The position numbers and the translations under genes were made by a program. Below the pieces are notes generated by a model that saw only the letters and a program-made list of their open reading frames with translations, had not been told where the DNA came from and did no database searches. From the sequence record OR757454.1: a stretch of 64,000 nt of DNA. The stretch is one strand, 5' to 3'. Shown one piece after another: positions 25,054 to 38,786 of this stretch. The stretch's first letter is position 1. The number at the start of each line of letters is the position of its first letter. Source of the DNA: Escherichia phage BYEP02.

Positions 25054-25372
25054 TGTCTGAACAAACTATTGAACAAAAACTGTCTGCTGAAATCGTAACT
25101 CTGAAGTCTCGTATCCTTGATACGCAGGACCAAGCGGCTCGTCTGATGGAAGAATCCAAAATTCTGCAAGGAACTTTGGCTGAAATTGCTCGTGCAGTAG
25201 GTATCACTGGCGATACTATCAAAGTTGAAGAAATCGTTGAAGCTGTCAAGAATCTTACTGCTGAATCTGCGCAGTAGGTATCACTGGCGATACTATCAAA
25301 GTTGAAGAAATCGTTGAAGCTGTCAAGAATCTTACTGCTGAATCTACTGATGAAGCAAAAGATGAAGAATAA
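25053..25372 (+). CDS. 57A: Tail fibre assembly chaperone gp57A; frameshifted by 77-bp duplication 25194-25347
   Basis: [72 protein letters not shown]... Confidence 0.85.
25194..25347. repeat. 77-bp tandem duplication inside 57A
   Basis: gcagtaggtatcactggcgatactatcaaagttgaagaaatcgttgaagc... twice. Confidence 0.9.
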
Positions 25373-25904
25373 TGGAATTTAAAGACTTTTCAACGGGTCT
25401 TTATGTAGCAGCTAAGTTTTCAGAATTAACACTTGATGCGCTGGAAGAACTCCAGCGCTCTTTACGTGTTCCTAATCCAGTTCCTAGAGAAAAAATTCAT
25501 TCGACTATATGTTAGCGCTGGAAGAACTCCAGCGCTCTTTACGTGTTCCTAATCCAGTTCCTAGAGAAAAAATTCATTCGACCATATGTTATTCAAGAGT
25601 AAATGTTCCGTATGTTCCATCAAGCGGAAGTTTTGAAGTAGCTTCTTCTGGACATTTAGAAGTATGGAAAACACAAGATGGATCGACTCTTGTACTTGTG
25701 CTAGATTCTGAATATCTGCGCTGTCGACACATGTATGCGCGGGCACTAGGTGCTACACATGATTTTGATGATTACACACCGCATATAACATTGTCTTATA
25801 ATGTTGGGCCCTTATCATTTAGCGGTGATGTACAAATTCCGGTCGTATTAGATCGTGAATACAAAGAGCCTCTTAAACTTGATTGGGCAGATGATTTAAA
25901 ATAA
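25372..25904 (+). CDS. 57B: gp57B, 2H-phosphoesterase-like; T4 57B is the anti-CBASS nuclease Acb1; frameshifted by 77-bp duplication 25438-25591
   Basis: [60 protein letters not shown]...HITLSYNVG (H-x-T/S-x motifs); position next to 57A as in T4. Confidence 0.8.
25438..25591. repeat. 77-bp tandem duplication inside 57B
   Basis: gcgctggaagaactccagcgctctttacgtgttcctaatccagttcc... twice. Confidence 0.9.
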
Positions 25905-25916
25905 TTTCACAAAGTT

Positions 25917-25946
25917 GTTTACACGTTGATGAGGTAGTGATACTAT
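25917..25946 (+). promoter_or_regulatory. T4 early-type promoter (-35 GTTTAC, -10 TACTAT) for the ipI-like gene
   Basis: aaagttGTTTACacgttgatgaggtagtgaTACTATtatc ~30 bp upstream of the ATG. Confidence 0.6.
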
Positions 25947-25976
25947 TATCTCATCAAAATTAATTAGGAAAATAAA

Positions 25977-26341
25977 ATGAAAACTTTCAAAGAGTTTACT
26001 ACAAAAACTACCCCGGTTTCTACTATTACTGAAGCTACTCTTACTTCTGAAGTTATTAAAGCAAATAAAGGACGAGAAGGTAAACCAATGATTAGTTTGG
26101 TTGATGGCGAAGAAATCAAAGGTACTGTTTACCTAGGTGATGGGTGGTCTGCTAAAAAGGATGGTGCTACAATCTGGTTGATGGCGAAGAAATCAAAGGT
26201 ACTGTTTACCTAGGTGATGGGTGGTCTGCTAAAAAGGATGGTGCTACAATCGTTATCTCTCCTGCTGAAGAAACTGCGTTGTTTAAAGCTAAACACATTT
26301 CTGCGGCACATCTCAAGATTATTGCTAAAAATCTTTTGTAA
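25977..26341 (+). CDS. ipI: Internal head protein (IPI-like, capsid-targeting sequence at N-terminus); frameshifted by 77-bp duplication 26099-26252
   Basis: MKTFKEFTTKT... N-terminus typical of T-even internal proteins; ~95 codons after removing one copy; position adjacent to 57B as in T4. Confidence 0.7.
26099..26252. repeat. 77-bp tandem duplication inside the ipI-like gene
   Basis: ggttgatggcgaagaaatcaaaggtactgtttacctaggtgatgggtgg... twice. Confidence 0.9.
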
Positions 26342-26359
26342 TAAATATTTCACAAAGTT

Positions 26360-26389
26360 GTTTACATAGGGTTTTAGTTGTGATACTAT
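26360..26389 (+). promoter_or_regulatory. T4 early-type promoter (-35 GTTTAC, -10 TACTAT)
   Basis: cacaaagttGTTTACatagggttttagttgtgaTACTATtacc. Confidence 0.55.
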
Positions 26390-26417
26390 TACCCTATCAA
26401 CTACTGAGGAGAATAAA

Positions 26418-36010: not shown

Positions 36011-36484
36011 ATGAAAACATATCAAGAATTTATCACTGAAGCAGCTATTAATTCTCAAATTATTGCTGAATCTTTTACTGATCTTTTGAAATTTAAAAAA
36101 GGTCAAAAAATTACTGCTGTATTGGATGATGGTACAGAAGTTGAGATGGATGTACAGGGATATAATTATGCAGTAGATGGAAAACTGTATAATAAATCCC
36201 ATGCTAAATTTGATTCATTTGACGACTTTGTTAATACAGTTGAAGATGAAAAAACTCGTAGATCAATTTCAACTGGTGATGCTAAGGTTCTTATGGCACA
36301 CGGTCATGAACGTATTCGCGCTAAACAGAATAAAATGGGTGAAGATAATTTCGCATTAGTTGGTTATCAATCTGGTAAACAAACTTATGGCTATCAGCGT
36401 ACTGCTACCATGTATAATAAAAATGGTAAAATCGCTTTCGTGAATAGTAAAGGTTCTATTCAGTACGTCAAATCATTCAAATAA
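36011..36484 (+). CDS. Internal head protein-like (CTS leader MKTYQEFITEA), 157 aa
   Basis: N-terminus MKTYQEFITEAAINSQ; basic protein immediately downstream of denV. Confidence 0.6.
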   Translation: MKTYQEFITEAAINSQIIAESFTDLLKFKKGQKITAVLDDGTEVEMDVQGYNYAVDGKLYNKSHAKFDSFDDFVNTVEDEKTRRSISTGDAKVLMAHGHERIRAKQNKMGEDNFALVGYQSGKQTYGYQRTATMYNKNGKIAFVNSKGSIQYVKSFK

Positions 36485-36637
36485 GCAAATAAGAAATATG
36501 GGAACAAGCTGGACCTCATGATTCTGTGAGGGATTCCCGCCAACCTGTAATAAGGTCGAGCCCAAGTGCGGTAATGGGTAAATACAGAAATGGACAATTC
36601 ATGCGCCATGGAATGGCCCAAATTTAGAGAGAATAAA

Positions 36638-37254
36638 ATGAGAACATTTTTAACTGGACCTTATCTATCCCTGATGAATGCTTTTACACACCATTCTGAT
36701 GCTAGAGTAGAAGAAATTTGTAAAAACGATTATATCCCACCATTTGAAGACTTACTCAAACAGTATTGCACACTTCGACTAGATGGTGGACGTCAATCCG
36801 GTAAATCAACTGCCCGCCATTTGAAGAATTACTTAAACAGTACTGCACACTTCGACTAGATGGTGGACGTCAATCTGGTAAATCAATTGCTGTGACTAAC
36901 TTTGCTGCTAATTGGTTGTATGATGGCGGAACAGTTATTGTTCTTTCTAATACTTCAGCTTACGCTAAAATTTCTGCAAATAACATTAAAAAGGAATTTT
37001 CGCGTTATTCTAATGATGATATACGTTTTCGTTTATTTACTGATTCTGTGCGCAGTTTTATTGGTAATAAAGGAAGCAAGTTCAGAGGTTTATCGCTTTC
37101 GCGAATTTTGTATATAATCGATGAGCCTGTTAAATCTCCTGATATGGATAAAATTTACGATATTCATATTGAAACTGTGCACCACTGTTGCAATAGTAAA
37201 TGCTGCATTGGTGGTATTACTCGTCCACAGTTTTTCATAATCGGAATGCAATGA
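36638..37254 (+). CDS. P-loop NTPase-like hypothetical protein; frameshifted by 77-bp duplication 36740-36893
   Basis: Walker A-like GGRQSGKST and Walker B-like LYIIDEP; ORFs 36590..36859 + 36892..37254. Confidence 0.5.
36740..36893. repeat. 77-bp tandem duplication inside P-loop protein gene
   Basis: ccatttgaaga(c/a)ttact(c/t)aaacagta(t/c)tgcacacttcgactagatggtgg... twice. Confidence 0.9.
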
Positions 37255-37580
37255 TGACAGACACGCAACTTTTCGAATATCTTTATTTTTCGCCAAAAAC
37301 TATTAAAAATAAATTGGTGAATCATTTTGAAATTTTGGCAAATAACAACGTCTTGAGCGAATTTTATCCTAAGCAATACAAATTACAAAAAGGCGTATTC
37401 AAAGGATGCAGAGTTTTGTGCACTGCTCCTAATGCAAGATTAATGAATAAAATTCCATATTTTACCATGGAATTTATTGATGGGCCTTTTAAAGGACTAA
37501 TTACCCAAAGTTTAATGGCATATGATTCTGAGCCATTTTTAATTAAAGAGCAATCTTGGATAAATTTATTTTCTAATTGA
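37251..37580 (+). CDS. Hypothetical protein (~109 aa)
   Basis: [48 protein letters not shown]... Confidence 0.5.
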
Positions 37581-37588
37581 GAGGTTAT

Positions 37589-37951
37589 ATGAAAGCATAT
37601 CAAATTCTTGAAGGCACGCATAAAGGTACTATTTATTTTGAAGACGGTATTCAAGCACGAATTATTGTCTCTAAAACCTTTAAAGAGGACTCTTTTGTAG
37701 ACCCAGAAATTTTCTACGGTTTGCATGCCCGTGAAATTGAAATTGAAACACAACCTACAGTTAAAATTGAAGGTGGTCAACACTTGAACGTTAATGTTCT
37801 GCGTCGTGAAACTCTGGAAGATGCAGTTAAGCATCCGGAAAAATATCCGCAGCTGACCATCCGTGTATCCGGTTATGCAGTTCGCTTTAACTCTCTGACT
37901 CCGGAACAGCAGCGCGACGTTATCGCTCGTACCTTTACTGAGAGTTTGTAA
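37589..37951 (+). CDS. Autonomous glycyl-radical cofactor protein (GrcA/YfiD-like; T4 Y06I-like)
   Basis: C-terminal ...[60 protein letters not shown] contains the glycyl-radical RVSGY motif, near-identical to E. coli YfiD C-terminus. Confidence 0.8.
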
Positions 37952-38249
37952 TGGCAAAGATAATTATTGAAGGTTCTGAAGATGTGCTAAATGCTTTCGC
38001 CGAATGGTTTAGTAATTCAGGCGAACAGCAATTTAATGAAGCGTGGAAGGTTCTAAAGATGTGCTAAATGCTTTCGCCGAATGGTTTAGTAATTCAGGCG
38101 AACAGCAATTTAACGAAGCATGGAACATGGGTGATATTAATGGAATTTATCCTACTACAGAAATTTCTGTTCAAGGATATGGCATTCATGAACCTATTCG
38201 TTTAGTTGAATACGATTTATGTACTGGTGAGGAAGTCAAATATGATTGA
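37951..38249 (+). CDS. Hypothetical small protein; frameshifted by 77-bp duplication 37969-38122
   Basis: [73 protein letters not shown]. Confidence 0.5.
37969..38122. repeat. 77-bp tandem duplication inside small gene 37951..38249
   Basis: gaaggttct(g/a)aagatgtgctaaatgctttcgccgaatggtttagtaattcagg... twice. Confidence 0.9.
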
Positions 38250-38508
38250 AGATATTAAAGGTTATAAGCCACATACCGACGAAAAAATCGGTAAAGTAAA
38301 TGCTATTAAAGACGCTGAAGTTCGTTTAGGACTTATCTTTGATGCTTTATACGATGAATTTTGGGAAGCACTAGATAATTGTGAAGACTGTGAATTCGCG
38401 AAGAATTATGCTGAAAGCCTCGATCAGTTAACCATTGCTAAAACGAAACTCAAAGAAGCCAGTATGTGGGCTTGTCGTGCTGTGTTCCAACCAGAGGAAA
38501 AATATTAA
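38241..38508 (+). CDS. Hypothetical small protein (88 aa); candidate for the vs.4/Acb2 position
   Basis: [88 protein letters not shown]. Confidence 0.5.
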
Positions 38509-38786
38509 TGGCTCAATTAAGCGCAGGGTTTGGTTATGAGTATTATACTGCCCCTCGTCGTGTATCTGTTGCTCCTAAGAAAATTCAAAGTCTTGATGAC
38601 TTCCAGGAAGTAGTCCGTAAAGCTTTCCAGGACTATGCACGTTATCTTAAAGAAGATTCACAGGACTGTCTCGAAGAAGATGAAATTGCTTACTATGAGC
38701 AACGTCTTGAACAGCTCAAAAACCTACATGAGGTTCGTGCAGAAGTTTCAAAGTCTATGAATAAATTGATTAGATTTAAAGAATAA
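38508..38786 (+). CDS. Hypothetical small protein (92 aa)
   Basis: [92 protein letters not shown]. Confidence 0.5.

Follow-up and report, generated by a model that had tools for sequence, protein, structure and literature searches.

Both canonical T4 anti-CBASS genes in a T4-like phage sequence with window-wide tandem duplications of fixed length

Introduction

Phage T4 carries two canonical genes directed against the cyclic oligonucleotide-based antiphage signaling system (CBASS). The first is 57B, whose product Acb1 has a catalytic tetrad formed by residues H44, T46, H113 and T115 (Hobbs et al., PMC9117128). The second is vs.4, which has been equated with acb2 and whose product acts as a sponge (PMC10449767, PMC12657218, PMC10312549). 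The Acb2 hexamer binds three cGAMP molecules (PMC10449767, PMC12657218), and a KD of ~84 nM for 3'3'-cGAMP has been reported for T4 Vs.4 (PMC10312549).

Here we analyze 57B and vs.4 in a stretch of 64,000 nucleotides (nt) of Escherichia phage BYEP02 (sequence record OR757454.1), referred to below in its whole length as the window. Judged by its sequence, the window is a segment of a Tequatrovirus (T4-like) genome. The best-matching Escherichia phages were slur03, slur08 and slur14 for the window, and PP01 for the vs region. We found both anti-CBASS genes, one of them interrupted as written by a tandem duplication of a kind that recurs along the entire window and that was, in all probability, introduced when the sequence was put together.

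Gene 57B

The features of the first gene are as follows.

25372-25904, + strand: 57B, encoding Acb1, an anti-CBASS 2H-phosphoesterase; interrupted as written
25372-25437 joined to 25515-25904: true open reading frame (ORF) of 57B, 456 nt, 151 amino acids (aa)
25438-25514: 77-nt duplication in 57B, first copy, at the end of segment 25269-25514; 76/77 identical to slur03
25515-25591: 77-nt duplication in 57B, second copy, at the start of segment 25515-26174; 77/77 identical to slur03
25782-25790, + strand: second catalytic motif of Acb1, H112-I-T114 (H113/T115 in T4 numbering)

In the sequence as given no uninterrupted ORF encodes Acb1. The two copies of the duplicated sequence lie head-to-tail and are 76/77 identical, the sole difference being a synonymous ACT/ACC change in the codon for Thr45. 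A TAG created at their junction ends a 47-aa ORF (25372-25515), and the remainder of the gene is read as a 131-aa ORF (25509-25904). In phage slur03 the sequence occurs only once here. Deletion of either copy yielded the same uninterrupted ORF for a 151-aa protein, which is identical to T4 57B at 151/151 residues. The de-duplicated protein matched Pfam family PF23474 ('Anti-CBASS protein Acb1') with 202.7 bits (cutoff 27), its residues 8-149 covering profile positions 1-144 of 144, and it matched the crystal structure of Acb1 of Erwinia phage FBB1 (PDB 7T26) with an E value of 4e-62. Both H-x-T motifs are present, HST at residues 43-45 and HIT at residues 112-114, and correspond to the H44/T46/H113/T115 tetrad; the numbering is off by one because the T4 annotation has an extra N-terminal Met. 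As the first motif is located in the duplicated 77-mer it appears twice as written, at 25498-25506 in copy 1 and again at 25575-25583 in copy 2. The position of the gene, between 57A and ipI, is the same as in T4.

These results bear out the original prediction that 57B is an Acb1 homologue with H-x-T/S motifs which is interrupted by the duplication at 25438-25591; the check on its catalytic histidines, made after removal of one repeat copy, found both motifs in place. The resulting frameshift, as argued below, is very probably part of a stitching artefact that runs through the window and not a property of the phage. On this sequence evidence 57B of the window is Acb1. Its predicted activity is carried over, at 100% identity, from T4 Acb1, for which activity has been shown (PMC9117128): the HxT/HxT tetrad would cleave the 3'-5' bonds of the CBASS cyclic oligonucleotides (3'3'-cGAMP and cUA, as well as cAAA), and the effectors would stay inactive.

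The databases lag behind on this gene. It is still given the outdated label 'RNA ligase' in the RefSeq records of slur03 (L002 1471-1926) and T4 (L005 14953-15411), and family phrog_755 of PHROGs is also labelled 'RNA ligase', though it corresponds to the Acb1 2H-phosphoesterase.

Tandem duplications across the window

The duplication in 57B is one of ~54 tandem duplications of fixed length that are present across the window, 52 of them of 77 nt and two of 81 nt. Tandem Repeats Finder, applied to the whole window, detected 50 arrays of two copies with period 77 and two with period 81. A second, independent scan for 77 consecutive bases repeated at offset 77 gave 51 sites with sharp boundaries and 0-9 mismatches; an additional 77-nt site, at 28531, has a 1-nt indel. 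The spacing from junction to junction is 223-4782 nt. The positions are listed here.

1-64000, no strand: the window, a probable chain of ~55 stitched segments with untrimmed overlaps
77-nt duplications, starts, part 1: 437, 1634, 2042, 3492, 3801, 4024, 5016, 6904, 8801, 10737, 12118, 13492, 14796
77-nt duplications, starts, part 2: 15518, 17541, 18373, 18748, 19266, 19631, 19978, 20592, 21118, 21386, 21667, 22967, 23419
77-nt duplications, starts, part 3: 23657, 24248, 25192, 25438, 26098, 26489, 27353, 28322, 28531, 30828, 33425, 34319, 35183
77-nt duplications, starts, part 4: 36736, 37969, 40152, 42669, 44887, 46387, 48872, 53654, 55966, 57188, 58506, 59941, 63619
81-nt duplications, starts: 29887, 50854

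The span from 57B to the vs genes contains the junctions at 25438, 26098, 26489, 27353, 28322, 28531, 29887 (81 nt), 30828, 33425, 34319, 35183, 36736 and 37969. Duplicated 77-mers hit the genes for the large and small terminase subunits, gp14, gp13, wac, gp12, gp9, gp8 and gp6; several genes are hit more than once, i.e. gp7 (three times), gp5 (four times), gp53 and gp2 (twice each). Others are found in gp3, gp1, 57A, 57B, ipI, nudE, endonuclease VII, NrdD and further genes. Since 77 is not a multiple of three, every 77-nt duplication within coding sequence shifts the reading frame, and given this frameshift load in essential genes no viable phage could carry the duplications. Nor can a 77-nt repeat at 99% identity arise by chance.

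When the window was cut at the junctions and each segment was aligned to slur03, all segments were colinear and the reference coordinates of neighbors overlapped by exactly 77 nt, or by 82-83 nt where the two 81-nt joins are located. The colinearity and the exact 77-nt overlaps of neighbors indicate that the window is an untrimmed chain of overlapping pieces. The homologous 49 kb of slur03 contain no repeat of period 77 or 81; only the natural 24-nt repeat of gp5 was detected there. Region 24300-28300 matched the best phage records in six pieces, and the span in the records was less than that of the query by 385 nt (5 x 77); no one-piece match was present among the INPHARED records listed. The 31-mer that spans the 57B junction (25514/25515) had no match in IMG/VR, JGI metagenome contigs or GTDB genomes. 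A biological tandem duplication would be expected to occur in related genomes or to be compatible with viability; these duplications are absent from slur03 and disrupt essential genes.

Deletion of one copy per junction reduced the window to 59,834 nt. After this de-duplication, each T4 protein with a homologue, from gene 2 to rI.-1, gave a single full-length tblastn match, with two exceptions: in vs.8 the match is split because the sequence diverges from T4, and in vs.5 because of a 1-nt deletion of T4's own.

Taking these sequence comparisons together, we consider it very likely that the window-wide duplications are an assembly or stitching artefact, i.e. the untrimmed overlaps of concatenated pieces, and that the frameshifts are not biology. 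Overlapping pieces would have been joined end to end with the 77-nt overlaps (81 nt in two cases) left in, and the untrimmed joins would have given rise to the ~54 tandem duplications, including one within 57B and one within vs.5, whereas the underlying phage would have both canonical T4 anti-CBASS genes intact. We hold this explanation as a whole, stitching duplications plus both genes intact in the phage, with the same high confidence. Its direct part consists of the duplications, their regularity throughout the window, the restoration of genes on de-duplication and the identity to characterized T4 proteins. What we infer are the biochemical activities, carried over from T4 counterparts at 100% and 99% identity, and the pipeline in its details.

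As to the 81-nt units, at 29887-30048 and 50854-51015, slur03 has one copy of each. Downstream of the tRNA cluster, the unit at 29887 includes a GC hairpin that resembles a terminator, with a run of T after it.

Identity to slur03 along the segments

The second copy agrees with slur03 at 77/77 positions in 46 of the 51 junctions, and the variants sit in the first copy. Mismatches to slur03 become more frequent along the segments, from a rate of 0.18% over the first 77 nt to one of 2.0% over the last 77. Almost all segments open with a stretch that matches slur03 exactly, typically of 100-2200 nt (a few are shorter), and are then divergent up to their ends; at every junction identity to slur03 is reset. 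The direction of this sawtooth is always that of the + strand, whatever the orientation of the genes.

This pattern bears on the possibility that the duplication in 57B is a genuine mutation, which would make Acb1 a pseudogene and the phage reliant on Acb2 alone, for instance through selection against Acb1. The ORF as written is indeed broken into a 47-aa and a 131-aa piece, and the one-base difference between the copies can be read as drift after duplication. The same fixed-length duplication, however, occurs ~54 times, in many essential structural and replication genes, so that the phage would not be viable, and slur03 is devoid of any such duplication. Moreover, the identity of the second copy to slur03 and its reset at each junction are a signature of computational stitching. 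We therefore regard a genuine mutation of 57B as extremely improbable. No more credit is due to the broader proposal that the duplications are physically in the DNA, for example of a defective, engineered or otherwise unusual genome that arose through an unknown templated process by which exactly 77 nt are copied time and again; if it were true, Acb1 and dozens of essential genes would really be disrupted. In a milder form of this proposal, the sawtooth may record a real mixed population of at least two Tequatrovirus genotypes in one sample.

Stitching remains the explanation that we prefer, but three observations weigh against its simplest version. The copies at the junctions differ at 0-9 positions, which plain k-mer overlaps within a single de Bruijn graph, being exact, do not fully explain; two joins are of 81 nt instead of 77; and the second copy is nearly always the slur03-identical one while the variants are in the first, in a sawtooth with a direction. 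Differences at up to 9/77 positions together with the two 81-nt joins rule out pure de Bruijn-graph overlap as the full explanation. The mismatched copies, the 81-nt joins and the slur03-identical second copies point to an additional reference-guided or polishing step. The sawtooth suggests that pieces of a mixed T4-like population were stitched in one direction, guided by a seed or a reference; this fits it better than plain de Bruijn-graph overlap.

The distances between variants in the segments are often multiples of three, and 64 of the 83 variants in region 36813-40228 are common to PP01 and/or T4. Sequencing error in the segment tails, which we considered as their source, is ruled out by this spacing and by the sharing of most variants with PP01 or T4; the segment variants are natural alleles. 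The divergent 3' parts of segments at 37119-38045 and 61530-63695 had no 100% match in INPHARED, the best being 99.0% and 98.7%, respectively.

These data raise the question whether the window is a stitched chimera of at least two co-occurring T4-like genotypes, one identical to slur03 and the other PP01-like or otherwise divergent. We judge this to be evenly balanced. Segments that begin 100% identical to slur03 and diverge toward their 3' ends, variants that are natural alleles, and divergent tails without a 100% match in INPHARED all speak for it; on the other hand, T-even phages are naturally mosaic and alternating identical and divergent blocks alone are no proof of a mixture. In such a chimera the gene sequences, that of vs.4 included, may be mosaics that are present in no single phage. 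A chimera is compatible with untrimmed stitching as the origin of the duplications, and would refine that explanation. Because the Acb1 and Acb2 proteins are 99-100% identical to those of T4 either way, their assignments are independent of this question.

Gene vs.4 and its neighbors

The second anti-CBASS gene lies in the following region.

37951-38249, + strand: vs.5, 73 aa once de-duplicated; not Acb2
37969-38122 (37969-38045 / 38046-38122): 77-nt duplication in vs.5, copies 74/77 identical; frameshifts vs.5 as written
38242-38508, + strand: vs.4, encoding Acb2, the cyclic-dinucleotide sponge; 88 aa, intact
38508-38786, + strand: vs.3, 92 aa, 90/92 identical to T4 Vs.3; not Acb2
38846-39307, + strand: regB endoribonuclease, 99.3% identical to T4 RegB; annotated in PP01 and slur03

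Gene regB serves as the positional anchor for the vs genes, and the order vs.6-vs.5-vs.4-vs.3-regB is common to the window, T4 and PP01. The original prediction had put forward three small ORFs of ~75-90 aa upstream of regB as candidates for Acb2. The three ORFs are indeed at this position, with true sizes of 73, 88 and 92 aa, and the choice between them is now settled: the ORF that aligned to Acb2 references is the middle one, 38242-38508, and vs.5 and vs.3 did not align. Gene vs.4 starts with an ATG at 38242 that follows the Shine-Dalgarno sequence GAGGAAG and overlaps the stop codon of vs.5; the program that listed the ORFs had taken an upstream TTG. The vs.4 product agrees at 87/88 residues with T4 Vs.4 and with the crystallized 'Vs.4' of PDB 7UQ2 (E 5e-57), E13D being the one change. 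It matched Pfam family PF24729 (Acb2_Tad1_hairpin) with 71.2 bits (cutoff 27), residues 7-83 covering profile positions 1-58 of 58.

Residues of known importance are also kept. Y8 and K23 align, in a weak phmmer alignment to PDB 8H2J/8IXZ (E 0.05), with Y11 and K26 of PaMx33 Acb2, which are essential for cGAMP binding (PMC10312549). In the PaMx33 protein, p26, the aligned positions read KGY and K. Residues Y37, A57, L60, D61 and T64, which are reported to block cA3 binding in T4-Acb2 (PMC10312549), are all present in Acb2 of the window, as is T68. As the cA3-blocking residues are present, the protein is predicted to bind cyclic dinucleotides and not cyclic trinucleotides, like T4-Acb2. We identify 38242-38508 as Acb2 by its sequence. 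From the 99% identity to T4 Vs.4 the protein is predicted to form hexamers and to sequester cGAMP: a small helical protein, it would as a hexamer sequester 3'3'-cGAMP and further cyclic dinucleotides but leave them undegraded, and would thereby raise the threshold for effector activation.

Genes vs.5 and vs.3 are adjacent to vs.4, encode proteins of similar size and have no known function, and on these grounds one of them might be Acb2 instead, or they might encode extra Acb2-like sponges. This is very unlikely, since neither product has a Pfam Acb2/Tad1 match at E<=0.01, searches against the PDB gave no Acb2 (Vs.3 matched 9WIW only, and Vs.5 nothing convincing), and T4 Vs.4 as query found a single locus, 38242-38505, in the de-duplicated window.

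At the site of the vs.5 duplication slur03 has a single copy, and the de-duplicated vs.5 is identical to slur03 at the DNA level and gave a full-length match to phrog_1986. For Vs.5, Pfam gave no match at E<=0.01, and the best match in the PDB (E 0.045) was not convincing. The T4 reference (L005 4382-4558) has a 1-nt deletion in vs.5, TTTCG-CGA versus TTTCGCCGA in the window and slur03; what is annotated as the 58-aa Vs.5 of T4 is, as a result, the 73-aa protein of the window in a frameshifted form. Vs.3 has a solved homologue, PDB 9WIW (109 aa, E 5e-38), which was deposited as 'Endoribonuclease', a name that may have been carried over from the neighboring regB. No Pfam family scored above cutoff for Vs.3, and literature searches on it, one of them swamped by the use of 'vs.3' for 'versus', returned nothing relevant.

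Other regions of the window

The tRNA cluster at 27430-29256 contains 10 genes (Leu, Gly, Pro, Ser, Thr, Met, Tyr, Asn, His and Arg) versus 8 in T4. It is preceded by a gene for an HNH endonuclease, and T4 segB is absent. Both tRNA-Pro and the tRNA-Ser/Thr boundary are cut by junction duplications (28322 and 28531), and the first copy at 28322 differs at 8/77 positions. Between lysozyme gene e and vs.8, a block known to be hypervariable in T-even phages, the genes for internal proteins and denV (34683-36590) differ from those of T4: denV shares only 77% identity with its T4 counterpart, and tblastn matched neither ipII nor ipIII of T4 in the window. At this block slur03 is annotated with an 'internal head protein' and an 'internal virion protein', and the position matches that of PP01 ipIV.

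Discussion

To judge from the identity of their sequences, Acb1 and Acb2 of the real phage are almost certainly intact and work as they do in T4. The pair is already known and there is no new biology in it; a preprint under the heading 'ejectosome protein inhibits CBASS' concerns the T7-like Gp15 and is irrelevant to the window. The practical value of the analysis is in quality control. Frameshifts, pseudogenes, tandem repeats and truncated ORFs of the window need to be checked against the list of ~54 junctions, and de-duplication should precede annotation of the sequence.

In assemblies by SPAdes the usual largest k for 150-nt reads is 77, and the edges of the graph overlap by k. The window resembles such untrimmed assembly-graph overlaps in its fixed overlap of 77 nt, in the head-to-tail duplication at each join, and in its many short segments, as are expected from a strain mixture. 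It differs from them in the copies that disagree at up to 9/77 positions, in its two 81-nt joins and in its slur03-identical second copies.

Among phages, slur03, slur08 and slur14 (slur03 being NC_042129, a Tequatrovirus) are colinear with the whole window at 96-100% identity per segment, and have the same gene content in 57A-57B-ipI and vs.8-regB. Unlike the window, slur03 has no tandem duplication of 77 or 81 nt, and unlike slur03, the window has PP01-like alleles in the 3' parts of its segments.

Among anti-CBASS proteins, T4 Acb1 (57B, NP_049750.1) has all 151/151 residues, the HxT/HxT tetrad and the site between 57A and ipI in common with its counterpart in the window; it differs in that its annotation begins one Met earlier (152 aa) and in that the ORF of the window is frameshifted by the 77-nt duplication, very probably an artefact. 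The structural reference, Acb1 of Erwinia phage FBB1 (PDB 7T26/7T27), aligns over residues 8-148 (E 4e-62). The prototype PaMx33 Acb2 (PDB 8H2J/8IXZ) has the Y/K pair in common with Acb2 of the window and is otherwise weakly similar (E 0.05); T4 Vs.4 itself is likewise weakly similar to PaMx33 Acb2 (24% identity). With T4 Vs.4 (NP_049728.1, PDB 7UQ2), Acb2 of the window is alike at 87/88 residues, and differs by the conservative change E13D.

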